DNA of 64,000 bases. Origin: a virus. Taxonomy: Duplodnaviria > Heunggongvirae > Uroviricota > Caudoviricetes. The DNA lies in IMG/VR virus record IMGVR_UViG_3300050821_002544. One strand, 5' to 3'. The notes beneath the pieces are model-generated. The model was not told the origin of the DNA. It was given only the letters and a program-made list of their open reading frames with translations, and ran no database searches. Position numbers and translations under genes: made by a program. Positions 6,796 through 47,667 of the stretch are shown here, one piece after another (position 1 is the first letter of the stretch; every line of letters begins with the position of its first letter).

Positions 6796-6801
6796 ATTAT
6801 A
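6796..6801 (-). promoter_or_regulatory. -10 box TATAAT of cobS promoter (TGTATAAT, leaderless arrangement)
   Basis: Minus-strand gctgTATAATgtcaggtATG. Confidence 0.5.
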
Positions 6802-6842
6802 CAGCATTTCGTTTAGAAGTATAGTATAATATACTTAATAGT

Positions 6843-6870
6843 ATCAATGACTTACATTAAGTACTTGATT
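6843..6870 (-). repeat. PeSL-like stem-loop element copy 1
   Basis: atcaatgacttacattaagtacttgatt; matches the consensus AATCAATGACTTACGCTAA-N5-TGATT. Confidence 0.6.
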
Positions 6871-9286
6871 AGACTGCAATTTCAGATGCAAAGCTTGTTA
6901 CCATCGCACGCTTAGAAGCCTTCTTTCTTTGAATTGCTGCGAATGCCTCACTAATCTGCGCATTAGTTTCTGCTTTACTAAAATCCTTAAATGATATGTC
7001 TTTAATAGACCCAGAAGCAGTCTCAACATAATAATATGAATCATATCCAAGTTTTACAATCTTGAAAAATCCATTCTTATCGATAGATTCATCTATCTGT
7101 GCCATTTTCTCATTAGAGAGATTTTCTTTCTTTGCATAACCTTGCAAGGTACGCTTTTCACCAACAAAGAAACCAATATGAAGACATTCGGTAGTAAGAC
7201 GAATAAGACGAGTCAATGCTGCTTGTACCTGATTGCCAGGACCATTTTCGACCATCACACGAACCTTAGTAATAGGATCAACAAAGCCAATATTGTACTT
7301 ATTACTATTATCCAAATCCATATGCCTATACATATCCGGATATTTAATACTCATACCACCTTCACCATCGGTAAGATAGATTACATTAATAATCTCAGCA
7401 CGAGTCTTTTCCTTAAATGCCTTAATAATCGATCTAGAAGCAATCACAGTCTCAATAAACGGTGTTCCACTAAGATTCATATTACCATTGTGCATACCCA
7501 TACGATAATCATTGAGCAAAAGCTTTTCATTAGGTGTAATAGAATTACTATCTTGTGTCATTGCAAAAACAATCATCATCGCTGCCGCACGATTAAAATT
7601 ACGTGGTGATAAGTCAGAATTAATTAGAGACTTAAGATGAAAAGTCTTACTATTAGGCAAAAATGCAGTAGGTGTCTTTGCTGTAAATTTTTGCTGAGTA
7701 TATTTTGTATCATTCATGTACGTTACAGAAGAATCAGAAAAACCATACACTTCAAAAGGTATACCAACCTTCTTACAAAACATTGCGAGAACAATAGCCT
7801 GTTCCATAGTATTGCGAATTACATCTACCATGGAGATAGACATATCTACAAACATAATCATACCATGGTCTTTGCCTTTCGGCGTATGAACCATCTTACG
7901 AAAAATGTTATTATTAAACTTATATTGCGAAATCTTACGCATATCAAGTTCACCAGTCTTTGACTCAAGCTGACGCGAATATTGATGCGCATTCTTACGC
8001 ATTTCAAATTCTTTTACAAGCAAAGAAATATACTTAATATTTTGCTTATGAAAATTTGCAAGGATTTCCTTTGAAACTAGATCATAATCAACTTTTGAAA
8101 GTGAATCGCGCATAGATTTACGCATAGCAGCTTCAAAAAAATCTACAATAGTTGCATTGGGGATTATAGTCTTCTTGAGGTCACATTCCGGGATATCAAG
8201 AAAAATATAGGGTCGCGCTACCTTATCAATTAACTGTTCTTCATTTTCTCGAAAAGATCGATCCGTGAGAGATTCAGGATCAGGCATTCCTACATCGTAG
8301 GAACCTTCACGACCTACTTGAGAATTGTTCTGATCTTCAAGGTCTTCGCCTTCTTCATCTTCTCCACCAGAATTACCACCGTTCCTATCGTCAGAATCAT
8401 CAGAATCGCTATCGCTTCCACTATCATCAGAATCACCGGAATCGTCGCCATCATCACTATCAACGTCGCTGCTATCCCCATTAGAATCAGAGGAATCATC
8501 GGTATTGTCATTGTCATCAGAAGTATTATCAGAGTCATCAGAACCATCTGAACTGTCCGATTCGTCATTATCATCTTCATCAGTTTTTTCATTTTTCTCA
8601 CTCTTTTTAGATTGGGTTTTATCAGTCTTTTCAGATTTTTCAGATTTTTCTTTAGATTTCTTTGGCTTGCCAGATATAAAATTCTGCATATCTTGCTGAT
8701 TATTAATCTTGTCTTCTTCTTTTTCTTTTACATAATCCCAAATTTTTTGGGTTATTTTTACTACCTCTTCCCATGTTTCGACATTTTCTAGTTCTTTGAC
8801 TAGTACACGTTCTTCATCATTAAATCTAATGGCAACACTAGAACCGCATTTAAATGCGAGATTAATACGATCAAGTAAATTAAGGGGCGAAAAATCATTA
8901 CCAAATTTCTTCACACCAAAGAAATCTCGGTTCAATAAAGTCTTATAACCTGCAATGAATGGTTTACGAATACCCGGAAAACGACGCTTTACTAATTTTT
9001 CTATGCGAGCGTCTTCACAAACATTAAGAAAACCTTGAAATTTAGCGCCCTTCTCTTTTGCTACAGATTCCCATTTTTCACTAGGAGTGTAAAGAGCATG
9101 ACCTATTTCATGTCCCATCAAAAGGTCATAAAGATCGCCTGTCATATCCTGCCAAATAGGGCACGTAAGAATACGTGTCTTCACATTAAAGGATGCAGTC
9201 TTAACAGGCAAATGTAGGACAGTAATGTTTTCCGCTGCTAAGAGCTTAGCAAGCAGAGATTTGCTCTCTGTAAGATTTGTTGACAT
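6869..9286 (-). CDS. cobT: CobT-like protein: N-terminal HExxH region, acidic D/S low-complexity linker, C-terminal VWA domain
   Basis: 805 aa. LLMGHEIGHALYT is an HExxH motif. A roughly 90-aa Asp/Ser/Glu-rich tract follows. MIDAS-like DxSxS in MIMFVDMSISMVD. Adjacent to the AAA_5 ATPase, the usual MoxR-VWA pairing. Confidence 0.65.
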   Translation of the reverse strand: MSTNLTESKSLLAKLLAAENITVLHLPVKTASFNVKTRILTCPIWQDMTGDLYDLLMGHEIGHALYTPSEKWESVAKEKGAKFQGFLNVCEDARIEKLVKRRFPGIRKPFIAGYKTLLNRDFFGVKKFGNDFSPLNLLDRINLAFKCGSSVAIRFNDEERVLVKELENVETWEEVVKITQKIWDYVKEKEEDKINNQQDMQNFISGKPKKSKEKSEKSEKTDKTQSKKSEKNEKTDEDDNDESDSSDGSDDSDNTSDDNDNTDDSSDSNGDSSDVDSDDGDDSGDSDDSGSDSDSDDSDDRNGGNSGGEDEEGEDLEDQNNSQVGREGSYDVGMPDPESLTDRSFRENEEQLIDKVARPYIFLDIPECDLKKTIIPNATIVDFFEAAMRKSMRDSLSKVDYDLVSKEILANFHKQNIKYISLLVKEFEMRKNAHQYSRQLESKTGELDMRKISQYKFNNNIFRKMVHTPKGKDHGMIMFVDMSISMVDVIRNTMEQAIVLAMFCKKVGIPFEVYGFSDSSVTYMNDTKYTQQKFTAKTPTAFLPNSKTFHLKSLINSDLSPRNFNRAAAMMIVFAMTQDSNSITPNEKLLLNDYRMGMHNGNMNLSGTPFIETVIASRSIIKAFKEKTRAEIINVIYLTDGEGGMSIKYPDMYRHMDLDNSNKYNIGFVDPITKVRVMVENGPGNQVQAALTRLIRLTTECLHIGFFVGEKRTLQGYAKKENLSNEKMAQIDESIDKNGFFKIVKLGYDSYYYVETASGSIKDISFKDFSKAETNAQISEAFAAIQRKKASKRAMVTSFASEIAV

Positions 9287-9293
9287 AGCGAGT

Positions 9294-9321
9294 ATTATAC
9301 GCTAATCAAAAAATATAGCAA
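9294..9321 (-). promoter_or_regulatory. Early sigma70-like promoter TTGCTA-N16-TATAAT for the cobT-like gene
   Basis: Minus-strand TTGCTAtattttttgattagcgTATAATactcgctATG. The ATG is 7 nt after the -10, predicting a leaderless mRNA. Confidence 0.6.
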
Positions 9322-9339
9322 TTAGAATAATCCTAATAA

Positions 9340-9366
9340 AATTAATGACTTACGCTAAATGATTGT
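9340..9366 (-). repeat. PeSL-like stem-loop element copy 2
   Basis: aattaatgacttacgctaaatgattg. Confidence 0.6.
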
Positions 9367-10056
9367 ATTTGCAGTAAATTTAAGAAATTGACCAGGATCA
9401 GCAACATTACTATCTGGTGTCATTTTCTTTCTTGCGTCTAGTGCTACTTTTTCCATTGCCTTACGAATAATTTCTTGTTTCTCTTGTTCTATTTTTTGTC
9501 TATTAAGAATCTTAATGTTCTTATAGACTTTCTTCTTCTGACGTTCAAGAATCATTTTAGGAACTTTTGATGTATAAACGATACCTTCCATATGATCGTA
9601 TTCATGGAGTATGATGCGCGCCGATAGACCAGAAAAAGTCTGTTCCTTAAATTCTCCATTCATATCCTGATATTTTATCTTAACAGATTCAGGACGCCTA
9701 ATAGGTAGAAACAAACCAGGAAACGTAAGACAACCTTCTTCAAATCCTGTCTCGCCAGTAGTTTCTAGAATCTCGGGATTAAAAAAGGCATAGCCGACAC
9801 CCTCTGAACCCATGACGAATACTCGCAAAGGAATACCACATTGATTAGCAGCAAGCCCAATACCATTACGTGCCTTCATAGTCTCAATCAATGATACTGC
9901 TAATTCACGTGCCAGAACAGGCGTGCGCGGCTGAAAAGTATCTACAAATCTAAACTCTTCTGTCTTCTGAGTTAGTATAGGATCAAATTTATCTACAAGA
10001 GGATAAATCTCATAACTATACATCTCACCATTTACATACTTAAGCAGCTTTCCCAT
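9355..10056 (-). CDS. def: Peptide deformylase with about 60-aa Lys/Glu-rich C-terminal extension
   Basis: Motifs GIGLAANQCG, EGCLTFPG and HEYDHMEG are the three PDF signature motifs. 233 aa. Confidence 0.88.
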   Translation of the reverse strand: MGKLLKYVNGEMYSYEIYPLVDKFDPILTQKTEEFRFVDTFQPRTPVLARELAVSLIETMKARNGIGLAANQCGIPLRVFVMGSEGVGYAFFNPEILETTGETGFEEGCLTFPGLFLPIRRPESVKIKYQDMNGEFKEQTFSGLSARIILHEYDHMEGIVYTSKVPKMILERQKKKVYKNIKILNRQKIEQEKQEIIRKAMEKVALDARKKMTPDSNVADPGQFLKFTANTII

Positions 10057-10333
10057 AATCTAATCCTCTTCTATTCACAACGTCTCTTTCCTTATCATAA
10101 TCTGTGTCTACCTTATCAAAATCTTCTGATTCTGCTGGTAACTTATCAAATACCCATTTGGATACTTCATCATCACCAACATAGGCAATGATTTCCTTAA
10201 TATATTCATATCCTAGTTGCTTAACACCAGTCCCTACAATTTTACTTGTTACATCCTTTCCAAATAATTGCTTTGTCGTCTTCCACCAAATTTCAACATC
10301 CGTATCGCTCTGAAAATCGGTTACATTGGACAT
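10040..10333 (-). CDS. Hypothetical acidic protein (97 aa)
   Basis: Complete ORF between gp46 and def. Confidence 0.45.
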   Translation of the reverse strand: MSNVTDFQSDTDVEIWWKTTKQLFGKDVTSKIVGTGVKQLGYEYIKEIIAYVGDDEVSKWVFDKLPAESEDFDKVDTDYDKERDVVNRRGLDYGKAA

Positions 10334-10341
10334 TTCGACTC

Positions 10342-12057
10342 CTAAGTTGAAATTCGAGAAAAATTATTGACCTTCTCAAATCTGATTACAGACCTAAATT
10401 TGTCAACCAAAATGTCACCCTTATGACTAATTACAAATACATTAGCTTCACTTCCTAGACTCTGAAGTAGCTTCATAAATTCTTCTGTTCCTGTATTATC
10501 TAGGGAACTATCAAACACCTCATCAAGAATAAGCAGATTAGTATCCATACTATTCTTCATCTTAGCAATAGAACGCCATGTGAACAATAATGCAAGATCA
10601 ATACGCATCTTCTCACCCTCAGAAAAGTTCTGATATGAAAATGTATCTCTATGACGAGATTTGATAGTCTCGTTGAATTCTTCATCAATCTCAAAGTTCA
10701 CAAAGAAGTCCATCGCTGCCAAGTATTTATTGATTAGCTTATTGATTACCGGCAGATATTGTCTGATAATCTTAGTCTTAATACCATTATCTTTAAGAAG
10801 TGTGAAAGCGACATCAAGATACTTTCGATCATCGACAATCTTCTTACGAATCTCAGATAATGATTCTAAGTCTTTTACAAGGTCTTCTGATACTTTAAGC
10901 ATATCATTAGATAACACTTTCTTATTTGCCAATTCGTTAATTTCATTTTGTAGTTTAGACATATATTGTTGAATCTGAACCACAGAAGCATTAATACGAG
11001 TCAATTCCGATTGATGTGAATGTATCTTTTTCTGTATTGCTTCTATATCAGAAAGTGTCTCGTATATCTTATTGGTTTGTTTGGCAATCTTATCTAGACC
11101 ATCCTTAAACTCTCGTATTTCTGTATTGGCACCTTCTATTGCAAATTTCTTAAAATTTGCATCAATATCCTGCATACATGTTGGACAATTATCATGATCT
11201 GTATAAAAATTATAATGCTTTGCAGCAACTTTTAATTTTTGTTCTATTTTAGATTCTAATGAATGGAGAGTTGTGATCTTTTCCTTAAGTATTTTTTCAT
11301 CTGATACTTTAGTCATCAAACCGTCTATATGTTTCTGGACCAAAGAAGCATTCAGAACCAATGTATTAACGTAAGTCTCATTGGTCTTATATTCGATAGT
11401 TTTCTTCTCTATCTGCTCTCCAGAATTCTTCCTGGCTTCTTCAACATACTTCTTTTGTAGTTCAATTTTCGATAGAGTTGAATCTAGCTTAATTTTAGTA
11501 TCATGGATATCATTCTTAATTTGATTAAGCTTACTCTTCACGATAGTATTCATAGAAGAGAAGATTCGGATATCCAATAGGTCTTCTATGACACCACGAC
11601 GATCCGCCGCCTCTAGCTGCATGAATGGAATGAAAGAACTACTTCCTAGAATTACAATCTGAGTGAATGCTCGATAGTTAAACTTAAGGATATTGGTTTC
11701 TAGATATGCCTGATAGTCTGTAGCACGTGCATCCTGCTTCTGTATCTCACCATCAATATAGATATTGAACACAGCGGGTTTAATACCACGTTCTATCTTA
11801 TATTCTTTATTTCCTATACGGAAATCTAATTCTACCAGGCATTCTTTCTCATTGATAGAGTTTACTAGTTCTGGTTTATTAATACCTCTAAATGACTTTC
11901 CAAATAGAGCAAACGTGAGGGCATCTAACAATGTAGATTTACCGGCACCATTGACACCCACGATCAAAGTATTTGGAGTCTTATCTAATAAAACATTAGT
12001 CCAAATATTACCGGTAGAGAGAAAATTCTTAAATCTAATCTTACGAAAGTATATCAT
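10342..12057 (-). CDS. 46: Recombination endonuclease subunit gp46 (SbcC/Rad50-like ATPase)
   Basis: N-terminal FRKIRFKNFLS...VGVNGAGKSTLLDALTFALFGK is a Rad50-type Walker A. C-terminal LLILDEVFDS. 571 aa. Confidence 0.9.
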   Translation of the reverse strand: MIYFRKIRFKNFLSTGNIWTNVLLDKTPNTLIVGVNGAGKSTLLDALTFALFGKSFRGINKPELVNSINEKECLVELDFRIGNKEYKIERGIKPAVFNIYIDGEIQKQDARATDYQAYLETNILKFNYRAFTQIVILGSSSFIPFMQLEAADRRGVIEDLLDIRIFSSMNTIVKSKLNQIKNDIHDTKIKLDSTLSKIELQKKYVEEARKNSGEQIEKKTIEYKTNETYVNTLVLNASLVQKHIDGLMTKVSDEKILKEKITTLHSLESKIEQKLKVAAKHYNFYTDHDNCPTCMQDIDANFKKFAIEGANTEIREFKDGLDKIAKQTNKIYETLSDIEAIQKKIHSHQSELTRINASVVQIQQYMSKLQNEINELANKKVLSNDMLKVSEDLVKDLESLSEIRKKIVDDRKYLDVAFTLLKDNGIKTKIIRQYLPVINKLINKYLAAMDFFVNFEIDEEFNETIKSRHRDTFSYQNFSEGEKMRIDLALLFTWRSIAKMKNSMDTNLLILDEVFDSSLDNTGTEEFMKLLQSLGSEANVFVISHKGDILVDKFRSVIRFEKVNNFSRIST

Positions 12058-13483: not shown

Positions 13484-13947
13484 TTCTTCAAATACTCTAT
13501 AGCCGAATTAAGATAATCAATATTATCACAAAATTGTCCAAGACCTATATTACATCTTGAACATAGTAAACCTCTAACATGTCCGGTTATATGACAATGG
13601 TCAACAGCTAACATTCTATATGTTATACACGATTGTTTGCAAATAGCACATACACCATTTTGTTGCTCAAACATTTCATTATATTGTTCTACAGTAATAC
13701 CAAATAAAGTTTTGAGTTTAGTATTTCTTACTTTATCTGGATTTTTAATTACATAATCTTTTGTTTTTTGATTCCACGCTTTCCTACCAATTTTTAAAAT
13801 AATAGTATTAGTTCTTTCTTTAGCACATTCTACACAATGAGAACCCCTTACATACCTCTCTGCTAGATGAGCATACTTACATGGTTTTCCAGTATAATAT
13901 CGGTCCTTATTCAAGGACATTGCATGTTTTCTTACTATTATTTTCAT
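13480..13947 (-). CDS. Endonuclease VII-family (HNH-like) nuclease
   Basis: C-terminal LAVDHCHITGHVRGLLCSRCNIGLG matches the Endonuclease_7 signature (DHDHxTGxVRGLLCxxCNxxLG). Confidence 0.7.
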   Translation of the reverse strand: MKIIVRKHAMSLNKDRYYTGKPCKYAHLAERYVRGSHCVECAKERTNTIILKIGRKAWNQKTKDYVIKNPDKVRNTKLKTLFGITVEQYNEMFEQQNGVCAICKQSCITYRMLAVDHCHITGHVRGLLCSRCNIGLGQFCDNIDYLNSAIEYLKK

Positions 13948-13971
13948 CGATCTATTATACAGGTTAATAGA

Positions 13972-14523
13972 TCATACGTCAAGTGTAGGTGGTTGATCTT
14001 CCAAGAAGATATCCAACTTGACTTTCTTGTCCTTCTTCTTACGTTCCTTTGCCTCTTCGAATCTACCTATGAAATCCGATATATTCTCATATAATTCAAA
14101 CTGTGCCGTAGTACCATCATCGTTCTCATGCTGTTCCATATCTCCCAAGACTCCATGATGTTCCGTCGCCTTATACTTGGCATATAATTGCTTCTTTTCC
14201 TTAAGAATACGTCTAAGAAATGCATAATAGATAATCTGAGTAAAATATGCAAATGGATTCTTTGATTTCTTTGGATCAAAATTATCAAAATACATAATAC
14301 AGTTTTCTATACCATCACCTATCATATCCTCCTTCCATGTAAATCCATTGAAGTTAGGTTTATGAGCAAGATTTTCTGCAATCAAAAGAAGACACTTTCC
14401 TACATAATCAGGAATTACCGGTTTTGGTTTTCCTTCTCTCTTTGCCTCTTTTACATCTTTCTTATATTGGATAATTGCCTTTAACAAATCTCCATTGTTG
14501 ACATAATGCGATGCTTTCGCCAT
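13972..14523 (-). CDS. 55: Late sigma factor gp55
   Basis: MAKASHYVNNGDLLKAIIQYKKDV resembles the T4 gp55 N-terminus, and NPFAYFTQIIYYAFLRRILKEKK resembles the corresponding T4 segment. 183 aa. Confidence 0.88.
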   Translation of the reverse strand: MAKASHYVNNGDLLKAIIQYKKDVKEAKREGKPKPVIPDYVGKCLLLIAENLAHKPNFNGFTWKEDMIGDGIENCIMYFDNFDPKKSKNPFAYFTQIIYYAFLRRILKEKKQLYAKYKATEHHGVLGDMEQHENDDGTTAQFELYENISDFIGRFEEAKERKKKDKKVKLDIFLEDQPPTLDV

Positions 14524-31177: not shown

Positions 31178-31438
31178 TTATATAAAAGTAATATCAAAAT
31201 CTTGATCGTGAAATTTCTTCAGCCATCGAAACTTAGTGCCGGTAGGGTCTACTAGAGGCACTATAAGTAGCCACGGACCGGGATCGTCATTGAAGAGTAC
31301 TGAATCAGCCTCACGTTCCACTTGCCATTGTGCGCCTAGCTCACGTACCCTATTCTTACCCTTTTGAGTCTTTCCCTTTAAGGAAACGATTTGCCTATTC
31401 ATTCTCAAGATTATACTCTTATATAACTTTAATGTCAA
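31178..31438 (-). CDS. Hypothetical protein (86 aa)
   Basis: Complete ORF. Confidence 0.4.
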   Translation of the reverse strand: MTLKLYKSIILRMNRQIVSLKGKTQKGKNRVRELGAQWQVEREADSVLFNDDPGPWLLIVPLVDPTGTKFRWLKKFHDQDFDITFI

Positions 31439-31454
31439 ATCAGAAACGCAAATA

Positions 31455-31490
31455 AAAACAGCGACTTATGGAAGTCGCTGTTATTTATCA
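31455..31490 (-). terminator. Rho-independent terminator after the SPFH gene
   Basis: Minus-strand aacagcgacttCCATaagtcgctgTTTTTATTTG. Confidence 0.65.
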
Positions 31491-34184: not shown

Positions 34185-34488
34185 TCATTGCCGTAATTAC
34201 TTTGCTAAGAAATTCTTTGGCTTTGCCAGAATAATGCTCATGATACCAATACGGATTGATACATAGCGAATCTTTCGCATGTTCGCGCATGTGCGGCTCA
34301 CGGCACATATTGCGCTTTGCTTCGACTTCATTGAAGTTCTTAATAAAGTCTATGGGACTAGACTTAATATTCAGAACAAGAGTCGAGTGATTGTTAACAC
34401 TCAAGGAAGCTTTAACTTTGTAAGTCTTACAAATAGCTTTGATAGTGACCGCAAGTTGAGCCTTGCGCTGCTGATTCATGTATGCCAT
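34078..34488 (-). CDS. Hypothetical protein (136 aa)
   Basis: Complete ORF. Preceded by the TTGCTT-N16-TATAAT promoter with the ATG 9 nt after the -10. Confidence 0.5.
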   Translation of the reverse strand: MAYMNQQRKAQLAVTIKAICKTYKVKASLSVNNHSTLVLNIKSSPIDFIKNFNEVEAKRNMCREPHMREHAKDSLCINPYWYHEHYSGKAKEFLSKVITAMNVGNHDRSDIQSDYFDVGWYISINIGKWNKPYVLV

Positions 34489-34497
34489 ATGCTGAGT

Positions 34498-34525
34498 ATT
34501 ATACGGGAAACCAGGAATTAAGCAA
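34498..34525 (-). promoter_or_regulatory. Early promoter TTGCTT-N16-TATAAT
   Basis: Minus-strand cTTGCTTaattcctggtttcccgTATAATactcagcatATG. Confidence 0.6.
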
Positions 34526-34543
34526 GAGTTAAATTATTAAGTA

Positions 34544-34572
34544 AATCAATGACTTACGTCAAGTGCCTGATT
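34544..34572 (-). repeat. PeSL-like stem-loop element copy 3
   Basis: aatcaatgacttacgtcaagtgcctgatt. Confidence 0.6.
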
Positions 34573-35964: not shown

Positions 35965-36551
35965 CTTTCCAAATTAGCAGCAGTTTGGCGGAATCGAACC
36001 ACCATTTACTATTAGTCAACCTTAGATCAGTACTGTGTTAACACCTAGCTAATACCTATATCGTCCTCTCACAAAGGGTTATCTATAGTTCCCTAAGTTA
36101 CCCAACTAAAACCGCATAAACAAAACGGATAACATGCTCTTTACATCAGCATCCCAATCTTAGGGACCGTGGATTTCACCACGCACTTTTATCCTAAACA
36201 AAACTGACTAGACTAATTAAGTGTCTTTTAGCTAACGGTTTACTTTCGCTAGTCTAGTCAAAATCTTGCCAGTTACGTCTCTGGCGTCTTTCCTACGAAT
36301 GTAGGCAAAGACCGTAAATTTGTTGGGTGAGACAGCACCCTTAACTGACCGGTAATTTGACACTTAAGTCTGGTTGGCACTACCCGCCATTCCACCATGC
36401 ACCGGATTCAGTCATGGTTTAGGAGATTATACACAACGCGCTACGAACTCTCTTTACTGCACTCCCGCAGTGGTTCGGGTTACGCTTTCTCTAATTCATG
36501 GGAGTAGTATACGCTAGTTTGAGAATATTACAAGTTAATAAAATTTAATAG

Positions 36552-36580
36552 AATCAATCACTTAGCGTAACCGGTTGATT
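36552..36580 (+). repeat. PeSL-like element copy 4 (variant CTTAGCGTAA core)
   Basis: aatcaatcacttagcgtaaccggttgatt, upstream of the plus-strand gene. Confidence 0.5.
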
Positions 36581-36635: not shown

Positions 36636-37358
36636 ATGGCAAGTAATACAAATGTTACCATTCCAGTAACCGGAGGCGTTCTTACTCTTAACGTTTCTTC
36701 TCTTATGTCTGTGCTATTCGCAGGTGCAACATTCACACCTACTGTAGTTGCTACTCCACCATCCAATACAACTCCTGTGGTTAATACCACACCAGTATCT
36801 AACACAACCAATACAACTCCAGTAGTTTCTGGTTCACCATTTTGGATTTATAATCATGGTGTATTTGCATGGGGTGGTGATTACTCATATCCAGGACCAA
36901 ATACTGTTATTAACTATGCATCTCATGATGTCAAAGCAGCAGACGGAAGCGCAAATGCTGTTATTAAGGTATTTTTGGGCGGTCAGTGGGGTGCATGGCA
37001 ACCATATGCCAATAATTGGGATCAGAACGTTTCCTCATGGAACTATCTAACATTCAAGTTGATGCCAACCGTTGCCAATCAGGTATGGGGAACATTCTGC
37101 TTGAAGGTAGGCGACGTTAATTTGACGCCAGCACCAGGAACTACGGCTAGTGGACCAGATGATATTTCTAAGTATGGTCCTGCAACTGCCGTTGTTGGTC
37201 AGTGGAATACTTACAAGATTCCTCGTACTGCATTCATGACTGATTATGCAACCGGATCACCTGTTGTTCTTACCGATATCTATAAGTTTGATATTCAGGA
37301 TAAAACTGGTGCAGCCAATAACACATTCTATGTCGATCAGGTAGCCTGGACTAACTAA
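36636..37358 (+). CDS. Putative carbohydrate-binding beta-sandwich protein with Thr/Pro-rich linker (only plus-strand gene)
   Basis: 240 aa. TPPSNTTPVVNTTPVSNTTNTTPVV linker. Aromatic-rich C-terminal domain ending NNTFYVDQVAWTN (CBM-like). GC higher than the window average. SD AGGGG. Confidence 0.5.
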   Translation: MASNTNVTIPVTGGVLTLNVSSLMSVLFAGATFTPTVVATPPSNTTPVVNTTPVSNTTNTTPVVSGSPFWIYNHGVFAWGGDYSYPGPNTVINYASHDVKAADGSANAVIKVFLGGQWGAWQPYANNWDQNVSSWNYLTFKLMPTVANQVWGTFCLKVGDVNLTPAPGTTASGPDDISKYGPATAVVGQWNTYKIPRTAFMTDYATGSPVVLTDIYKFDIQDKTGAANNTFYVDQVAWTN

Positions 37359-37432: not shown

Positions 37433-37880
37433 CTTTTTGTTTCTAACGATTTTATTTGAGCAAGTAGACCAGGAGACGGAACTTGCTTTTGCTTCTTTAA
37501 ATCAGAAACAATCTTATATGACTCATTAAGAGTTACAACGATTTCTTCTAATCGCTCTTGTAATGAATCTACGTGAAAATTCTCAGGGTTTCACTTTAGA
37601 ATATTTCTTTGATAAGTTCTGTTGAAGCATCTTCTTCATTGCTTGTCTATTATGAGATTCCATCTTACGGGAATATTCTTCTGGACTAATTTTGCCTGTA
37701 GTCAGAAGATGATGAAGATCACGATGCTTGTTGTCTTTTAGTCCATTCATAGGAATTATTTATATGCGCGTTTCTTACAGACAATACAGCGCATCCCATC
37801 ACGACTTCCTAGTCCATGGAAATGATGGTCATCAAGAATATAACAATACCAGAATTTGGTCAGGAATTTCCTAAGACGTT

Positions 37881-39013: not shown

Positions 39014-39400
39014 TCAAGCTGCACCAGTCCATTTACAGTTACCGTAATTCGGCTCAAGGATATTGCCGCGAACAAAATTCAGGGCAGGCGCTTTCCATGA
39101 CGCACACTTGAGAATATCGCCGACCTTAAGAGAAAGCTTTACGCCTTTCTTAGTCGGAACATTCACGATGCAATCTTGCATTACAATGAAGCAATGTGAA
39201 CTGCGCGATGAACCCGACATGTGCCAGATGCGAAGAAATTTTTGACCTTTCTTAATCTTGTCCGTAGCAAGATCATAGCGGGGAGTAGAATTGGCACTAC
39301 CATTGTTCCATGGCGTAGACCAATCATTACCATAATCCTTGCGCATGGCATCCATATAAGCGACAAGGGCTAAATCAAGATCGTGTGTTTCGTATTTCAT
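39014..39400 (-). CDS. Hypothetical protein (128 aa)
   Basis: Complete ORF with the TTGCTC-N16-TATAAT promoter and ATG 7 nt after the -10. Confidence 0.5.
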   Translation of the reverse strand: MKYETHDLDLALVAYMDAMRKDYGNDWSTPWNNGSANSTPRYDLATDKIKKGQKFLRIWHMSGSSRSSHCFIVMQDCIVNVPTKKGVKLSLKVGDILKCASWKAPALNFVRGNILEPNYGNCKWTGAA

Positions 39401-39407
39401 GATGAGT

Positions 39408-39435
39408 ATTATACTGGAATCTACAGAAAGAGCAA
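39408..39435 (-). promoter_or_regulatory. Early promoter TTGCTC-N16-TATAAT
   Basis: Minus-strand cTTGCTCtttctgtagattccagTATAATactcatcATG. Confidence 0.6.
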
Positions 39436-39453
39436 GGAATATATTCCTATTAG

Positions 39454-39482
39454 AATCAACAACTTACGCCAAGTTCTTGATT
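39454..39482 (-). repeat. PeSL-like stem-loop element copy 5
   Basis: aatcaacaacttacgccaagttcttgatt. Confidence 0.55.
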
Positions 39483-40454: not shown

Positions 40455-40764
40455 CCTTAGACGCCTTGCGCGCCGCTGCCTTCTTAGCCTTCGGAGAAAG
40501 CTTTACTGCCTTCGCAGCGTTGACCTTAGCAACCAGCTTGGCAACGCGCGCCTGCGCCTTTTCGAGCTTCGCCGCATCCTTCACGGCACGTGCCGCAACC
40601 TTCTCAGACTTCGCCTTTGCCTTTTCTGCCTTCGCAGTTGCCTTAGCAGCCTTCATGCTCTCGCGTTCCACCTTGACCGATGCAGCAAGAGTCTTCACAG
40701 TCTCACGAGCAGTCTTCGAAGCGAGACGAGCGGCAACGAGTGCCAGTTGAGTTTCAGTTTTCAT
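40417..40764 (-). CDS. Ala/Lys-rich histone H1-like protein (KAxKA repeats), GC-rich gene
   Basis: 115 aa, about 30% Ala and 20% Lys with repeated AKA/KAK units. Local GC is about 55%, against about 35% background. Confidence 0.55.
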   Translation of the reverse strand: MKTETQLALVAARLASKTARETVKTLAASVKVERESMKAAKATAKAEKAKAKSEKVAARAVKDAAKLEKAQARVAKLVAKVNAAKAVKLSPKAKKAAARKASKVVTLVQDGKQVA

Positions 40765-40826
40765 AATTCAATAATACCTTTAAATGAGAGATTCAGTTTC
40801 GGTGAAGTACTTTTGTCTTTCACCAT
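40761..40826 (-). CDS. Leaderless 21-codon mini-ORF coupled (ATGA) to the Ala/Lys-rich gene
   Basis: The ATG is 7 nt after TATAAT (agagTATAATactctacATGgtgaaagac...). The stop TGA overlaps the ATG of the downstream gene. Confidence 0.35.
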   Translation of the reverse strand: MVKDKSTSPKLNLSFKGIIEL

Positions 40827-40833
40827 GTAGAGT

Positions 40834-40861
40834 ATTATACTCTAATCTATGTTTTATGCAA
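40834..40861 (-). promoter_or_regulatory. Early promoter TTGCAT-N16-TATAAT
   Basis: Minus-strand cTTGCATaaaacatagattagagTATAATactctacATG. Confidence 0.55.
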
Positions 40862-40879
40862 GTTATTAATTCTCTGTAG

Positions 40880-40908
40880 AATCAACGACTTACGCTAACC
40901 TGTTGATT
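40880..40908 (-). repeat. PeSL-like stem-loop element copy 6
   Basis: aatcaacgacttacgctaacctgttgatt. Confidence 0.6.
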
Positions 40909-41737: not shown

Positions 41738-41893
41738 TTAATACCTGACCAGTTCAGCGGTTTTTACGAAGAAGGTAGGATAGACATTCTGTACTATCTT
41801 CTTTGCCATTTCAACGTCATCGGCACGTACTGCGACAGGCATTGTATAGCCTATAGGAGACTTGATTTCTACTTTGTAGATACTTTGTTTCAT
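41738..41893 (-). CDS. Small hypothetical protein (51 aa) not in the ORF track
   Basis: MKQSIYKVEIKSPIGYTMPVAV..., preceded by TTGCTA-N16-TATAAT with the ATG 7 nt after the -10. Confidence 0.4.
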   Translation of the reverse strand: MKQSIYKVEIKSPIGYTMPVAVRADDVEMAKKIVQNVYPTFFVKTAELVRY

Positions 41894-41900
41894 GTTGAGT

Positions 41901-41928
41901 ATTATACGCTATTTGCTAAAACTAGCAA
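41901..41928 (-). promoter_or_regulatory. Early promoter TTGCTA-N16-TATAAT
   Basis: Minus-strand cTTGCTAgttttagcaaatagcgTATAATactcaacATG. Confidence 0.6.
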
Positions 41929-41946
41929 GGAATCAATTTACTTATA

Positions 41947-41975
41947 AATCAATGACTTAGCGTAAGTGCCTGATT
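41947..41975 (-). repeat. PeSL-like stem-loop element copy 7
   Basis: aatcaatgacttagcgtaagtgcctgatt. Confidence 0.6.
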
Positions 41976-41976
41976 C

Positions 41977-42453
41977 TTATAGAGTTCTAGAAGGAGTGAT
42001 TCCACGATATTGCGCATTCTTATCAAGAGTCGCCAATATAGAAGAATTATCCAATACTATCATATGGTTAGAGTTGACCACTAACACATAAGAAGGAACC
42101 TTCAAATGTGCCGCAATAACAGCATCATCAAAAGAGAAGTTTCCGGCAGTTTTCTCAGTGCCAGGATGACTATGGTAAATGCCTGATATTGCACAAGATT
42201 TTGGAATTCCACCCCTCAAAGAGAAATGGTGTTGATCCTTGTCGGTCTGTGCCTCCGTATAACGGATACCATCGGTGCAAGTAAGGATAAGTCCACCATA
42301 CTCAAAAGTCTTAGACTCCTCTCTAATGCCTTCTAATGCGGTCCTAGCAGCGCTATCGACAGACTCGAAAGAATCGACGGAAAGTGTCAAAGGTTGCGAT
42401 GCAGCAAAGGCAGAACTTGCAACGAGAGAAAGTGCTAAAAATGTCTTATTCAT
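41977..42453 (-). CDS. Secreted protein with signal peptide and HSHPG motif
   Basis: Start moved to MNKTFLALSLVASSAFAA (42453), 9 nt after the promoter -10. The ORF-track start at 42498 lies upstream of that promoter. Confidence 0.5.
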   Translation of the reverse strand: MNKTFLALSLVASSAFAASQPLTLSVDSFESVDSAARTALEGIREESKTFEYGGLILTCTDGIRYTEAQTDKDQHHFSLRGGIPKSCAISGIYHSHPGTEKTAGNFSFDDAVIAAHLKVPSYVLVVNSNHMIVLDNSSILATLDKNAQYRGITPSRTL

Positions 42454-42462
42454 AATAAGAGT

Positions 42463-42490
42463 ATTATACACTGTGCAGTGAATATAGCAA
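42463..42490 (-). promoter_or_regulatory. Early promoter TTGCTA-N16-TATAAT
   Basis: Minus-strand cTTGCTAtattcactgcacagtgTATAATactcttattATG. Confidence 0.6.
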
Positions 42491-42508
42491 GAAAACAAAA
42501 TATAATAA

Positions 42509-42537
42509 AATCAATGACTTACGCTAACCCATTGATT
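42509..42537 (-). repeat. PeSL-like stem-loop element copy 8
   Basis: aatcaatgacttacgctaacccattgatt. Confidence 0.6.
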
Positions 42538-43370: not shown

Positions 43371-43516
43371 CTTCTTTTACTACGCGAACATTAATATATG
43401 TGTCAGGCAATTCTTTCATTGCTTCCGCAACTTCATCTGCCTTCTCTTGTGAGATATAGCCAGCCGATTCACAGAGATATATGTTACCCTTATGATGAAT
43501 CAAATCGTAGATTACT

Positions 43517-43783: not shown

Positions 43784-43904
43784 CGCTCAATTCCCATCGG
43801 GAACTTGCAATGTCACATGCTGCCCATACGTCATGCTTGTGCTTGCCTTCCATTAGCGCCATCGCAGTCGAAATCGCTTCTGCTACAATTTCGTTATTAG
43901 ACAT
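43731..43904 (-). CDS. Hypothetical protein (start at internal MSNNEIV)
   Basis: The ORF-track N-terminus overlaps the upstream gene; the trimmed version gives an 8-nt overlap. Confidence 0.35.
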   Translation of the reverse strand: MSNNEIVAEAISTAMALMEGKHKHDVWAACDIASSRWELSDEECYILYAAMGIKYSG

Positions 43905-44091
43905 TGTGATGATCCAGAATATCCGTGATGGTTTCGGCAAACATGTCCTTGCCCCAGGCAACGGCGAGTTCGATGTAAAACTGATTTTGAAAATCATCCA
44001 ACGGCTCGCGCCGGAACTGAAAAATTTGCATTCGGCAAGTCTCACGAATCTCGTTCAAGATCGCAAAAAGCTGTTCGTTAGTATGTTCCAT
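43897..44091 (-). CDS. Hypothetical protein (64 aa)
   Basis: Clean composition (MEHTNEQLFAILNEIRETCRMQIF...). Confidence 0.4.
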   Translation of the reverse strand: MEHTNEQLFAILNEIRETCRMQIFQFRREPLDDFQNQFYIELAVAWGKDMFAETITDILDHHNV

Positions 44092-44094
44092 ATA

Positions 44095-44289
44095 TTATGA
44101 TGCTTTCCGCAAGTACTTGATTTGCTCAGTAGTCGGCTGGTCTATATTGTCCCATTTCACAGTGACAAGTATCTCAGAATTGACTTCTATGATCGTTCCG
44201 TTTGGAACATCATTATACATCGGCGCAACCCGATAACCAACCTTTGCTAACTTCTTCATCATATGGTGCCCATTATACACTACTTTCAT
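44095..44289 (-). CDS. Hypothetical protein (64 aa)
   Basis: Small ORF. Confidence 0.4.
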   Translation of the reverse strand: MKVVYNGHHMMKKLAKVGYRVAPMYNDVPNGTIIEVNSEILVTVKWDNIDQPTTEQIKYLRKAS

Positions 44290-44317
44290 TAAAAGACAAG
44301 AAGAATACTCTTAAGAA

Positions 44318-44346
44318 AATCAATGACTTACAACAACTCTATGATT
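44318..44346 (-). repeat. PeSL-like element copy 9 (degenerate right half)
   Basis: aatcaatgacttacaacaactctatgatt. Confidence 0.45.
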
Positions 44347-44530
44347 TCATTAGTCCTATTAGGTTAGCTTCTTCGTAGAATCTTCGTTGTGCTAGCTTCA
44401 CTGTCGAAACGTCCTCATAACGCTTATCATACGGCATATGATCGTCATAGACAGGAATTGATGGTGCATGTTGACACTCTTCACAGCCGACGCCTTGACA
44501 GTTCTCGCAGTATACAATAAAATCAGCCAT
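44339..44530 (-). CDS. Cys-rich zinc-binding protein (63 aa)
   Basis: CENCQGVGCEEC. Confidence 0.4.
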   Translation of the reverse strand: MADFIVYCENCQGVGCEECQHAPSIPVYDDHMPYDKRYEDVSTVKLAQRRFYEEANLIGLMKS

Positions 44531-44660
44531 CTTCGTCTTCTCCTAAATCTTCTCCTGCAATGTACTTATATTCAAACCAAGAAATACCTGCAAGTACAAT
44601 AATCGACAATATGAAAAATCCTATGATGCCTAAGATCAACCAGCCTATAGTTTTAAGCAT
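44523..44660 (-). CDS. Small membrane protein (start trimmed to MLKTIGW)
   Basis: TM helix LILGIIGFFILSIIVLAGI. The N-terminus of the ORF-track ORF overlaps the next gene. Confidence 0.35.
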   Translation of the reverse strand: MLKTIGWLILGIIGFFILSIIVLAGISWFEYKYIAGEDLGEDEDG

Positions 44661-44874
44661 GTACAGGAACCAATTTATACTCTGTAACACGATATTCCTT
44701 ATCTCGGTTATATACGAAGTCTTTGTTACTATTAATGACATTACACAGAGCATCGGCTTCTTCTTTTGACATGTTCATACGCCATGCTTCATCTCGTTTC
44801 CATTCGAATTGGATCTTCATACCGTTCCCGACTATCTGTGTCCAGCGAGATTCTATTAGAAATAGATTATTCAT
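44653..44874 (-). CDS. Hypothetical protein (73 aa)
   Basis: Small ORF. Confidence 0.4.
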   Translation of the reverse strand: MNNLFLIESRWTQIVGNGMKIQFEWKRDEAWRMNMSKEEADALCNVINSNKDFVYNRDKEYRVTEYKLVPVHA

Positions 44875-45136
44875 ACCAGACTTCTATGCGATAGGCTTCT
44901 GGATACATGACAGAAAGCCTATTATTAAGCTTTGTCATTTCTCGCTTACGTTTGCCTGTGTTGATGCTTCCCATGACACTCTTTGTCTTCACCCATATAG
45001 TACCATGTATAGGATAATTAGGATCAGGCAATGCCGATCCTTTGACGGTATAGTGGAGCGCTTCCCGTTCTCCGCTAGGGCGGTGCTGGAGTGCAGCATA
45101 GTGCGTTCTAGTCGCCTTTACGATATCAGTATACAT
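44867..45136 (-). CDS. Hypothetical protein (89 aa)
   Basis: Small ORF. Confidence 0.4.
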   Translation of the reverse strand: MYTDIVKATRTHYAALQHRPSGEREALHYTVKGSALPDPNYPIHGTIWVKTKSVMGSINTGKRKREMTKLNNRLSVMYPEAYRIEVWYE

Positions 45137-45320
45137 GTTCTACCTGCATAGTTGCGAGATTCACGACTTCATACCAATCGACACCAATGCCACTCTTGAG
45201 AAGTTTCTTTCCGGCATTGTCGGCTTTCTTAAGAGTATCATACGATCCTCTATAGTCGTTCCATGCGGCAGGATAGTATGTATCGCCTGCAAGAACGATA
45301 TACTGTTTTACTTTTACCAT
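45126..45320 (-). CDS. Hypothetical protein (64 aa)
   Basis: Small ORF. Confidence 0.35.
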   Translation of the reverse strand: MVKVKQYIVLAGDTYYPAAWNDYRGSYDTLKKADNAGKKLLKSGIGVDWYEVVNLATMQVEHVY

Positions 45321-45327
45321 TACTGCG

Positions 45328-45657
45328 TTACCATGATATCTTAATACTTCCTACGTCAAAGGGTTTGAGAGCAATATCGACAGTGAATGTGCTATCATGC
45401 CAAAAATCTTCTGTTAGTTCAATGTCGGCATCTGAGAAATTATCGGCAACTTCTCCACTCTGAAACCACCATGTTCTACCGTTATATGTCGCAATAGTAG
45501 AAACTCCATAGCGATGCGCATAGTCCTTACTCATCTGTCCGACTTTGGTCTTATTGCCATCATCCCATACGACAGTAGTATAATCAGAGTTTTCTGACAA
45601 TACGTACATGTTGCGCTTGATTAGCGCCTCACGAATCTTTTCTAATTGTTCGTTCAT
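45328..45657 (-). CDS. Hypothetical protein (109 aa)
   Basis: Complete ORF. Confidence 0.4.
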   Translation of the reverse strand: MNEQLEKIREALIKRNMYVLSENSDYTTVVWDDGNKTKVGQMSKDYAHRYGVSTIATYNGRTWWFQSGEVADNFSDADIELTEDFWHDSTFTVDIALKPFDVGSIKISW

Positions 45658-45908
45658 AGATTCGCTTTTCTGATGTACTCTAAGTCATCATAGGAAAACC
45701 AAATATTTATCCAACCGTCTTTAATTTCGGTGTGGGTGCGAATCGTCGTATGCCATAGAAGACTGCGAATTTTGTGCTCAATCATCCGCATGGTTTGATG
45801 GTTGACGGGAAGACCCACAAATTCCTCTAATTCAGCATGAGTAATACCAGCGCTGGCGTGAGGGTCATCCGTACCGCGAATTTTGTCGTCAACATTTATC
45901 CCGCTCAT
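45654..45908 (-). CDS. Hypothetical protein (84 aa)
   Basis: Small ORF, ATGA overlap. Confidence 0.4.
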   Translation of the reverse strand: MSGINVDDKIRGTDDPHASAGITHAELEEFVGLPVNHQTMRMIEHKIRSLLWHTTIRTHTEIKDGWINIWFSYDDLEYIRKANL

Positions 45909-45933
45909 GATTTTCCCTCTCTGCTGGTAGCAT

Positions 45934-46134
45934 TCATACTTGAACTGCTTCTACTGCTTCGACTTCATTGATGACTAGTCCATTGCGAGTATTTTTCGAA
46001 TACTGTAGATCGTATCCGGTAAGCCTACTTCCTGTATGCTTGAATGTAAATTCCTTGACATTCTTGACAGTGACAGTCTTGCCACTCTTCATATGGAAAA
46101 GAACTATAAACCTGGGTTTAAAGATATTAAACAT
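45934..46134 (-). CDS. Hypothetical protein (66 aa)
   Basis: Small ORF. Confidence 0.35.
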   Translation of the reverse strand: MFNIFKPRFIVLFHMKSGKTVTVKNVKEFTFKHTGSRLTGYDLQYSKNTRNGLVINEVEAVEAVQV

Positions 46135-46315
46135 TGTTATTCCTACTACGACGAATTAACTTTGGTTCTGGTTTATGAAGTTCCCAAATTTCACCACATT
46201 TGTTGCATTCTGCCCATGCATTGGAGTTTTCTGTCTTCTTTTGAAAGACGCCACCACATGAACATTTCTGTCCGTGTTTCTTACCAAAAATGGTTTTCTT
46301 GTTCATATTAAACAT
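46127..46315 (-). CDS. Zinc-ribbon protein (62 aa)
   Basis: CSCGG...CNKCGE. Confidence 0.4.
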   Translation of the reverse strand: MFNMNKKTIFGKKHGQKCSCGGVFQKKTENSNAWAECNKCGEIWELHKPEPKLIRRSRNNNV

Positions 46316-46317
46316 TT

Positions 46318-46500
46318 CTAGTGTCTTCCTGATTCGACCGTATAGCGCTCATACGCTTCTTTCACGCAGTACTCTAGAGTTGCGGCAATGAGAACTTCGT
46401 CGGTATTGGCATCGCGTACATGAGCATAAAGGATATGTTCACGCTTCCCTGATCCTTTACGAACATCCGTAATATAGACCACTTGCTTAAGAGCATTCAT
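46318..46500 (-). CDS. Hypothetical protein (60 aa)
   Basis: Small ORF. Confidence 0.35.
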   Translation of the reverse strand: MNALKQVVYITDVRKGSGKREHILYAHVRDANTDEVLIAATLEYCVKEAYERYTVESGRH

Positions 46501-46501
46501 A

Positions 46502-46762
46502 TTAGACTACCGTACTCATCTTGAAAATCAGTGCCTTGTCCATGATCGTCACTCGGTCTGCACCAGTGACATTAATCAAAAAATCATACACTGCGACAGT
46601 CGCATCTACGCGGACACAGTAGTTATGAAGATCGATGCTCGCAATGCCGATCAATTTCAATCCCTCACGTGTGAGGAATTTCTGTACGGCAAGCATCTGA
46701 TTAAGCTCCGTGCCGGTAATGTTGACTTGATTCGTCTTGCGATACTGGTTTAGTGTTTTCAT
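46502..46762 (-). CDS. Hypothetical protein (start trimmed to MKTLNQ)
   Basis: The first ATG overlaps the -10 TAGAAT; the second ATG is 7 nt after the -10. Confidence 0.4.
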   Translation of the reverse strand: MKTLNQYRKTNQVNITGTELNQMLAVQKFLTREGLKLIGIASIDLHNYCVRVDATVAVYDFLINVTGADRVTIMDKALIFKMSTVV

Positions 46763-46769
46763 GTTAAGC

Positions 46770-46797
46770 ATTCTACGCTCTTTTGAGAATAATGCAA
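46770..46797 (-). promoter_or_regulatory. Early promoter TTGCAT-N16-TAGAAT
   Basis: Minus-strand cTTGCATtattctcaaaagagcgTAGAATgcttaacATG. Confidence 0.5.
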
Positions 46798-46818
46798 GTT
46801 TTTAATGCTGTGTGAAAA

Positions 46819-46869
46819 CAAGTACTTAGCGTAAGTGATTGATTCTATTAAGATTACGCTAAGTACTTG
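46819..46869. repeat. Perfect 16-bp inverted repeat built from two head-to-head PeSL-like cores
   Basis: caagtacttagcgtaa-N19-ttacgctaagtacttg. Confidence 0.6.
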
Positions 46870-46875
46870 ATATTA

Positions 46876-47325
46876 TTAAGAAACTTTCTTATATAGATTT
46901 ACGCGGTTTTTACGATCTCCTTTAATTGGGATAATTGTAAACATCCTGTCCTTTTTTGATGCTCCACCATTTAGATGTCCGCCACAGATAGCATATGCAT
47001 GATCGTATGCACGATCATAAGGTAAACCTTTAAAACCTTTTGGCGCATCAATTGTGAGAAAATTATCGCCAGACATTTCTCTAACTTGAGTACGTTCTGG
47101 CTTATTTTCATCAGGTAGTCTAATTTCTGTTTCAGCCAAAACCTCATTGGATTTTACAGAAATTGTTGGCATTGATACTAAATTCAACCTATCATTTTTC
47201 TCTTTTTCTTCTCTCCTAATATTATCTCTAATTTTTGAATGAGCAAGAATAATTGAATCAACAAGAAAGGATTGAATCCTAACTTTCATTTTTGTAAACA
47301 TCTTCAAAACACCTTCATCAAACAA
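46876..47325 (-). CDS. Hypothetical protein (149 aa) with GLPYDRAYDHAYAICGGHLNGG motif
   Basis: Complete ORF; conserved-looking His/Asp-rich C-terminal segment; function unknown. Confidence 0.45.
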   Translation of the reverse strand: MFDEGVLKMFTKMKVRIQSFLVDSIILAHSKIRDNIRREEKEKNDRLNLVSMPTISVKSNEVLAETEIRLPDENKPERTQVREMSGDNFLTIDAPKGFKGLPYDRAYDHAYAICGGHLNGGASKKDRMFTIIPIKGDRKNRVNLYKKVS

Positions 47326-47443
47326 TTCGATACATTCGAATTTTCATTTGATGAGAACCATTATACAGGAGGATTCTCATAAGTGCAATTTTGAATTTAG
47401 ACCCTATATCGAGAAAAGTGCGGCGTTCCAGTATTAAAGATTC

Positions 47444-47456
47444 TAAGTCATTGATT
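47444..47456 (+). repeat. Partial PeSL-like core (TAAGTCATTGATT)
   Basis: Reverse-orientation partial copy in an ORF-poor stretch. Confidence 0.35.
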
Positions 47457-47541
47457 CGTAAGGCTGTAATTGTCCACAGTAGTAAAGTAAACAGGTGAGT
47501 TCTAAGGTTTGTGCAACACAACAAAATAACTAATCTTAATA

Positions 47542-47568
47542 GATTCAATGACTTATCGTTAGATTTGT
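47542..47568 (-). repeat. PeSL-like element copy 11 (degenerate)
   Basis: gattcaatgacttatcgttagatttgtt. Confidence 0.45.
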
Positions 47569-47649
47569 TCTAAGGTGAGTAGATAGGTGTAATAAAGTGA
47601 CATTGAGTTAACATAATATTTAATATGTTAAATTCCTTAATAGTAAGGA

Positions 47650-47667
47650 AATCAATGACTTATAGCC
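47650..47667 (-). repeat. PeSL-like element copy 12 (left half)
   Basis: aatcaatgacttatagcc. Confidence 0.4.

Follow-up and report, generated by a model that had tools for sequence, protein, structure and literature searches.

We analyzed a window of 64,000 nucleotides (nt), the whole of the stretch taken from IMG/VR virus record IMGVR_UViG_3300050821_002544, for a family of repeated intergenic cassettes in which a short inverted repeat precedes a σ70-like promoter that ends almost on a start codon. The window encodes a major capsid protein, scaffold, portal, sheath, large terminase, a gp46/47-like nuclease and a helicase. Its portal is 55% identical to that of Methylophilales phage Melnitz and 52% identical to those of cyanomyophages, its nearest relatives are Kyanoviridae-type phages, and four late promoters of the form TATAAATA are present, all on the coding strand. 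By its gene content, the window belongs to an uncultured T4-like myovirus, for which no near-identical DNA was found in the phage collection searched.

Repeated promoter cassettes of the window

The full cassette occurs 10 times, always on the minus strand, as ∼85 nt that align without gaps, and is accompanied by one divergent copy and three solitary boxes (Table 1). It begins directly after the stop codon of the gene upstream and consists of the inverted arm AATCAAnnACTTA, 3 nt, the 13-bp box TAAGTCATTGATT, 18 nt of A/T-rich sequence, TTGnnn, 16 nt, (G)TATAAT, 6 to 9 nt, and ATG; in full cassettes the TATAAT is usually followed by ACTC. The distances of 18 nt from the box to the −35 element and of 16 nt from the −35 to the −10 element hold in all 10 full copies, and the 18-nt spacer contains 78% A+T, compared with 62% in the window. 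Promoters are described at the level of sequence throughout this work, and locus labels (L001 to L090) denote other phage loci that carry the box or the cassette, with relatives recovered from public assemblies and IMG/VR stretches.

Table 1. Cassettes, single boxes and associated features, in coordinates of the whole window (aa, amino acids; ORF, open reading frame)
Feature	Positions	Strand	Start of right box	Details
Cassette before cobS-like AAA ATPase gene	6786–6870	minus	6842	boxes 6858–6870 and 6842–6854; predicted true start 6788
Promoter of the cobS-like cassette	−10 TATAAT 6796–6801	minus		weak −35 TATACT; ATG 7 nt after −10
Cassette before cobT-like 805-aa gene	9284–9368	minus	9340	right box TAAGTCATTAATT, then TTGCTA-16-TATAATACTC-GCT-ATG
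Box-less promoter	13945–13982	minus		TTGACG-17-TATAAT-6-ATG; 155-aa gene; leaderless geometry
Divergent cassette	31400–31482	minus		11-bp hairpin AACAGCGACTT/AAGTCGCTGTT, then TTTATTT, TTGACA-17-TATAAT-7-ATG; 74-aa ORF
Cassette before 136-aa gene (phrog_10415)	34486–34572	minus	34544	ATG 9 nt after −10
Candidate non-coding transcript	35965–36499	minus		putatively driven by the 36552 cassette
Cassette with −10 TATACT	36497–36580	minus	36552	then ATGAATTAG (two codons), followed by ∼540 nt of non-coding sequence
Cassette before 128-aa gene (DUF7717)	39398–39482	minus	39454	L084 orthologue keeps box, promoter and 6-nt gap to ATG
Cassette whose ATG opens a 21-aa ORF	40824–40908	minus	40880	21-aa stop overlaps ATG of a 115-aa ORF (ATGA)
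Cassette before 51-aa ORF	41891–41975	minus	41947	
Cassette before 158-aa protein	42451–42537	minus	42509	N-terminal signal peptide (MNKTFLALSLVASSAFA)
Cassette before 55-aa ORF	44260–44346	minus	44318	TTGTCT-16-TATAAT
Cassette before 86-aa gene	46760–46872	minus	46816	−10 TAGAAT; extra box 46860–46872, making one and a half copies
Three solitary boxes	47650–47662, 47542–47554, 47444–47456 (inverted)	minus		within an ORF-free 370-nt stretch (47300–47670)

The repeat that had been noticed in the sequence clearly exceeds chance. The 19-mer AATCAATGACTTACGCTAA, allowing up to 3 mismatches, matches 10 times in the window versus 0.09 expected, and GAGTATTATA, the plus-strand form of the −10 element with ACTC, has 6 exact matches versus 0.30 expected, each lying exactly 50 nt from its own box. 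A generic σ70 scan of 33 to 49 kb returned 60 sites versus 55 expected and hence no enrichment, so that the specific cassette alone stands out, and not σ70-like sites in general. The ten full copies from 6842 to 46816 and the 16-nt spacing of the original prediction were recovered, whereas its entries at 47444, 47542 and 47650 proved to be solitary boxes rather than palindromes, and both the divergent copy and the box-less promoter had escaped it. Nor is the promoter invariant, as had been proposed: the −35 element reads TTGCTA in three copies, TTGCAT in two, and TTGCTT, TTGCTC, TTGTAA, TTGTCT and TATACT in one each, leaving only TTG as its constant part.

The frequent TTGCT resembles the Mot box TGCTT, which raises the alternative of middle-mode (MotA-type) control, as in the PmSLs described for phage nt-1 (PMC4122927), and TTGCTn does stand at about the right distance in 5 window copies. 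Across the family, however, only TTG is conserved, among hexamers that include TTGACA, TTGATA, TTGTAA and TTGCAT, and a Pfam scan of 80 small ORFs in the window found no AsiA domain. The Kyanoviridae-type phages to which the window is nearest lack, to our knowledge, both MotA and AsiA. We therefore regard middle-mode control as highly improbable.

In their distribution, the cassettes recall the promoter early stem-loop (PeSL) elements known in the T4-like phages RB49/phi1, T4/PST and KVP40/nt-1, which combine a σ70-like promoter, an A/T-rich stretch upstream of it, a terminating stem-loop, and a 3′ Shine-Dalgarno sequence with start codon, and which sit in plastic, ORFan-rich regions and have been implicated in gene shuffling (PMC2839356, PMC4122927). 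The 10 full and the partial copies of the window likewise occupy intergenic sites of a plastic, ORFan-rich region of a T4-like genome: most lie between 31 and 47 kb among small ORFs, and none falls inside the structural block at 14.5 to 31 kb. When the window was compared with two related loci (L086 and L070), anchor genes and cassettes were common to them, and most of the genes between differed or were reordered. Given that ∼85 bp of common sequence flank unrelated small genes, the cassettes could serve as recombination points, as proposed for PeSLs, and gene shuffling at the cassettes is compatible with the data.

The exact cassette had no match in IMG/VR, and looser patterns were needed to retrieve relatives; the stretches fetched from Melnitz, Variovorax phage V45v66 and Pseudomonas phage PA5oct were without the box. 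Box-bearing promoters stand beside pairs of cobS-like (AAA/MoxR) and cobT-like (VWA) genes at nine otherwise different phage loci, one of which (L076) has cassettes at the same two positions as the window, whose own pair lies at 5181 to 9286.

Start codons next to the −10 element

In a set of 35 cassettes from the window and 10 relatives from public assemblies, an ATG follows the −10 element after 6 to 9 nt in 28, the gap being 7 nt in 20 of them, so that the A of the ATG occupies position 7 to 10 after the −10. The start codon is ATG in all 28, and a pyrimidine (C or T) immediately precedes its A in 27. RNA polymerase favors a purine start 7 to 8 nt after the −10, following a pyrimidine. This preference and the cassette geometry together predict a leader of 0 to 3 nt, and with so short a gap between −10 and ATG, neither a leader nor a Shine-Dalgarno sequence can be accommodated. 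The originally proposed distance of 7 to 9 nt between −10 and ATG thus holds as a real geometry that is kept in relatives, with a measured range of 6 to 9 nt in the window cassettes as well.

As far as sequence can tell, the cassette ATG is the true start of these genes, because the 158-aa protein carries its signal peptide there, the alignment of the 136-aa product of the 34488 gene with phrog_10415 begins at residue 1, and orthologues exist with leaders. Among 63 phage records that match the 34488 product, 62 span 80% or more of its length, and among the 30 matches listed, all begin at residue 1. Its orthologues in three relatives (L013, L019 and L023) share the same MAYM/MAYV start behind TTGACC or TTGACT-17-TATAAT and a ∼28-nt leader with GGAG. 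The cobT-like protein is likewise collinear from its N terminus with the L076 orthologue, whose cassette has a 22-nt leader with GGAG. Promoter cassette and protein start therefore appear identical among these phages, with a leader in some and none in the window. Elsewhere, the short gap itself is kept at orthologous genes, namely those of the 128-aa gene in L084 and of the 86-aa gene in L086 and L090. By inference from these start codons and the conserved geometry, leaderless early mRNAs, or mRNAs with leaders of 0 to 3 nt, are well supported, which carries the earlier claim of leaderless transcripts as far as the ATG geometry and leaves the transcription start as a prediction. Two further parts of that claim were borne out: leaders containing AGGAG or GGAG lie between TATAAATA and the late genes, and two ORF calls were overextended, starting at 6797 instead of 6788 (cobS-like gene) and at 46771 instead of 46762.

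The 36552 cassette opens no normal protein gene. The first ∼190 nt of the non-coding stretch behind it are conserved in L072 (1–400), starting exactly at CATGAATTAG and not upstream, and a cassette precedes them there too; this conservation only from CATGAATTAG (CATG) onward fits a transcription start at that point. ARAGORN and Rfam found nothing in the stretch, its fold was no better than those of shuffled sequences, and two pattern scans returned L072 and chance matches only. It ends near a tRNA-like T-arm sequence, GGTGGTTCGATTCCGCC. In related marine phages, tmRNA genes have been described behind early promoters (PMC9004378), and the stretch may be an undescribed phage RNA. Diverging from the same cassette is the only convincing plus-strand gene (36636–37358), whose 240-aa product is rich in Thr and Pro in its N-terminal region and has no family match. 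The 40880 cassette, too, opens no normal protein gene. Its counterpart in L086 is arranged alike, with a 17-aa ORF followed by a 119-aa ORF, and both this 17-aa ORF and the 21-aa ORF of the window (40764–40826) open with a GGTGAA...TTCACC hairpin.

A different explanation of the same geometry is that read-through transcripts are translated, with the A/U-rich TATAAUACUC acting as a Shine-Dalgarno-independent ribosome landing site and the promoter-like sequence being secondary. Many small early ORFs of the window do lack a recognizable Shine-Dalgarno sequence, and the hairpins described below are too weak to block read-through. However, the full −35/16/−10 architecture is kept, the expected start coincides exactly with a pyrimidine-purine step, orthologues elsewhere combine the same promoter with a normal leader, and the putative non-coding RNA is conserved only from its CATG onward. 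We thus consider translation of read-through transcripts improbable as the main explanation, and prefer initiation at or next to the ATG.

Short or absent leaders are not confined to early promoters here, since a late promoter TATAAATA at 37750–37764 is followed after only 6 nt by the ATG of a 55-aa gene, whose L086 orthologue has a 32-nt leader. They are not confined to the clade of the window either. A stand-alone protein of 105 to 115 aa, termed GIY-YIG-like from a reading of its motifs rather than a family search, is encoded at 11 of the other loci, and in at least 8 of these only 6 nt separate the −10 of a box-bearing promoter from the start of the gene for this protein, so that the leaderless geometry also occurs outside that clade. 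This small protein is the commonest at the box-bearing loci, which have no protein family common to all of them.

The inverted repeat as RNA hairpin or DNA box

As RNA, the inverted repeats of the window fold poorly. Predicted free energies range from 0 to −12.4 kcal/mol and lie mostly between −5 and −6, most z-scores are above −2, and only one copy folds clearly better than its shuffles, while one does not fold at all. The copy at 42451–42537 is the best hairpin of the set (−12.4 kcal/mol), and that at 9284–9368 has a degenerate left arm and no predicted hairpin. In a typical copy, the stem contains few G-C pairs, is interrupted at its center by a 2x2 mismatch and is not followed by a proper U-tract, in contrast to the G+C-rich stem and U-tract of an intrinsic terminator, and a terminator scan detected none of the window hairpins.

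The conservation of the arms follows sequence rather than pairing. Among 31 copies with a 3-nt loop, both arms represent one conserved box in opposite orientations, and 81.9% of cells were paired versus 82.6% with shuffled partners (covariation score, 0.094 versus 0.099). Of the two positions that vary most, 7 lacks pairing in 22 copies and 8 in 20. A bias of G-U over A-C mismatches, considered as a sign of RNA pairing, was uninformative: the overall counts were 17 versus 12, but A-C exceeded G-U by 9 to 2 at positions 7 and 8.

The position of the box relative to the promoter, on the other hand, is strongly constrained. In 41 promoters outside the window, the distance from box to −35 is 18 to 19 nt in 31 and 27 to 28 nt in 6, two spacings that are one helical turn apart, whereas the distance from box to box varies from 0 to 19 nt or more. 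The pattern TAAGTCATTGATT-N30-50-TATAATAC was found in 29 IMG/VR stretches of 36 to 65% G+C, and the exact box without any left arm in 10 promoters from 8 other phage loci (36 to 50% G+C). The exact palindrome occurs in 35 stretches of the viral collection, with loops of 3 to 30 nt. Because the promoter distance is fixed, phased and orientation specific and the partner distance is free, the repeat is best read as a promoter-linked DNA element and not as a terminator. We propose that the stem-loop interpretation be replaced by a pair of conserved boxes with the promoter-proximal one as the putative functional core, and this 13-mer is probably an upstream promoter element read by a protein.

The main competitor is a classical PeSL, in which an RNA stem-loop terminates or attenuates transcription from upstream, the promoter restarts it, and the likeness of the arms results from concerted evolution by recombination. 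The repeat does directly follow the upstream stop codon, a lacZ test showed termination by the stem-loops of RB49 PeSLs (PMC2839356), and the 36552 and 46816 cassettes agree at 14 of the 16 positions of their promoter spacers by our own count, hinting at copy-to-copy exchange. Two observations speak directly against our reading of the repeat as DNA: the divergent copy is a good terminator hairpin (31457–31482) in which both arms have co-changed and a G+C-containing stem is followed by a T-run, as at no other copy, and the perfect palindromes of other phages have predicted folding energies of −13 to −27 kcal/mol, so that a hairpin function retains some weight. Nevertheless, a T-rich tail follows only 3 of 40 perfect palindromes, and the classical reading has to accommodate the weak or missing folds of the window and the lack of covariation. 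Moreover, single boxes keep a constant spacing to the −35 in unrelated contigs of 36 to 50% G+C, which concerted evolution within one genome cannot explain. We consider a classical PeSL unlikely, though the most serious of the rivals, and retain the paired-box reading.

The three solitary boxes at 47444–47662 are probably degraded cassettes. The ORF-free stretch that holds them also contains TGTATAAT, and another regulatory region is an alternative.

A candidate reader of the box and related known systems

The reverse complement of the box, AATCAATGACTTA, fits the consensus WATCAANNNNTTR given for the DNA-bending protein IHF (PMC9452768, PMC10380432) at every specified position. In the window, WATCAANNNNTTR has 25 sites versus 7.65 ± 2.6 expected, 17 of the 25 being in cassette boxes. 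The match is flanked by the A/T-rich spacer described above, as is typical of IHF sites, and in both arms variation peaks at positions 7 and 8, inside the N stretch of the consensus. In 596 Gb of bacterial genomes, the exact palindrome turned up at 10 loci, of which 9 are proteobacterial, and is thus much rarer there than in the far smaller viral collection. This rarity and the proteobacterial loci suggest that the element is phage-borne and that the hosts of box-bearing phages are probably Proteobacteria; a marine host, as named in the original prediction, was an assumption. IHF itself we put forward as a tentative candidate for the reader. The Pfam scan of the small ORFs otherwise gave one match each to HTH_39 (winged helix), to an Aca2/YdiL-like domain, and to the homing-endonuclease motifs HNH and NUMOD3.

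On balance, we favor the following explanation as a whole. Each cassette would be a host σ70-type promoter (TTGnnn-16-TATAAT) for an early gene, at which RNA polymerase is expected to start at the A of the ATG or 1 to 3 nt before it, giving an mRNA without a Shine-Dalgarno sequence that would be translated as a leaderless message. Less firmly, the 13-bp box TAAGTCATTGATT, located 18 bp upstream of the −35 with its center near −60, may be a DNA element for a protein that helps or controls the promoter, with host IHF or a protein of similar specificity as the best candidate. The inverted copy upstream would be a second box, and the weak hairpin formed by the two boxes would at most attenuate read-through from the preceding gene.

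Besides the hairpins discussed above, several findings count against this explanation. Seven of the 35 cassettes, all in relatives, have ATC (seen in L070), ATA or no ATG at the expected place, and 8 of the 28 ATGs open ORFs of fewer than 40 aa, some of which are cut by contig ends; given these exceptions and those at 36552 and 40880, the ATG appears to be partly a feature of the cassette itself. With respect to IHF, the box is conserved beyond what this protein needs, with A9 and C10 kept and a weak GGATT/GAATT motif following it, and the Pfam scan of 80 small window ORFs revealed no HU/IHF-type gene. In addition, IHF bound at the proximal box would be expected to cover DNA as far as the −35 region.

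T4-like phages serve as the model for timed phage gene expression, with early genes that are generally assumed to carry ordinary Shine-Dalgarno leaders. If the explanation holds, a dozen early genes placed at the transcription start would show that leaderless translation can be the main early mode in a large lytic phage, which would also be informative on host ribosomes. More speculatively, and with considerable doubt, a broad set of uncultured phages of Proteobacteria may share an undescribed early module made of the phased 13-bp box, bound by IHF or another factor, to which one T4-like clade would have added the systematic loss of the leader. On that reading, early proteins could be made only from transcripts of their own promoters, an interlock of transcription and translation by which read-through copies would be silenced later in infection. 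The conserved box offers a handle on how early promoters are boosted or controlled in many uncultured phages, and it casts doubt on the routine labeling of any inverted repeat beside a phage promoter as a terminator. For annotation, it matters that gene callers overextend or misplace the starts of such genes.

The literature, which was incompletely covered, yielded nothing on the 13-mer, on IHF at T4-like early promoters, or on leaderless early genes in T4-like phages or cyanophages. Leaderless mRNAs as such are familiar, for example, that of λ cI from PRM. As in these and in genome-wide predictions of −10 elements near start codons, the cassettes place TATAAT 6 to 9 nt before an exclusive ATG without a Shine-Dalgarno sequence; the difference is that here the arrangement applies as a rule to an entire group of early phage genes and is conserved across a T4-like clade. 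IHF is known to stimulate the early promoters Pe of phage Mu and PL of λ and to bind the repeated palindromic RIP/RIB elements of E. coli. The window box resembles such sites in its exact consensus match, in the A/T-rich sequence on its promoter side and in its fixed helical phase upstream of a σ70 promoter, and it resembles RIP/RIB in being a repeated palindromic intergenic element. As a candidate site, it differs in being conserved at positions that IHF leaves unspecified and in having its center near −60, closer to the promoter than in the classical examples. With intrinsic terminators, the cassettes share an inverted repeat right after a stop codon and, at 31457–31482, the stem and T-run noted above, whereas the typical copies differ in their few G-C pairs, their mismatched stem and their lack of a proper U-tract.

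The closest likeness is to PeSLs. Both are repeated intergenic composite motifs of ∼85 to 100 bp in ORFan-rich plastic regions, with a σ70-like promoter, an A/T-rich stretch above it, an inverted repeat just upstream of that stretch, an end at the start codon, and flanked genes that vary between relatives. The PeSL-like arrangement proposed originally stands for the repeated σ70-type cassettes and their setting, and is overstated for the stem-loop, which is weak, lacks covariation and has an arm that stands alone elsewhere. The cassettes thus fit the PeSL idea with two differences: they have a start codon with no space for a Shine-Dalgarno sequence or leader, and their inverted repeat is A/T-rich, poor as an RNA hairpin and conserved in sequence rather than in structure. 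Together with the occurrence of the 13-mer in many otherwise unrelated phage contigs, these differences agree with the earlier suggestion that the family is distinct from published PeSLs.

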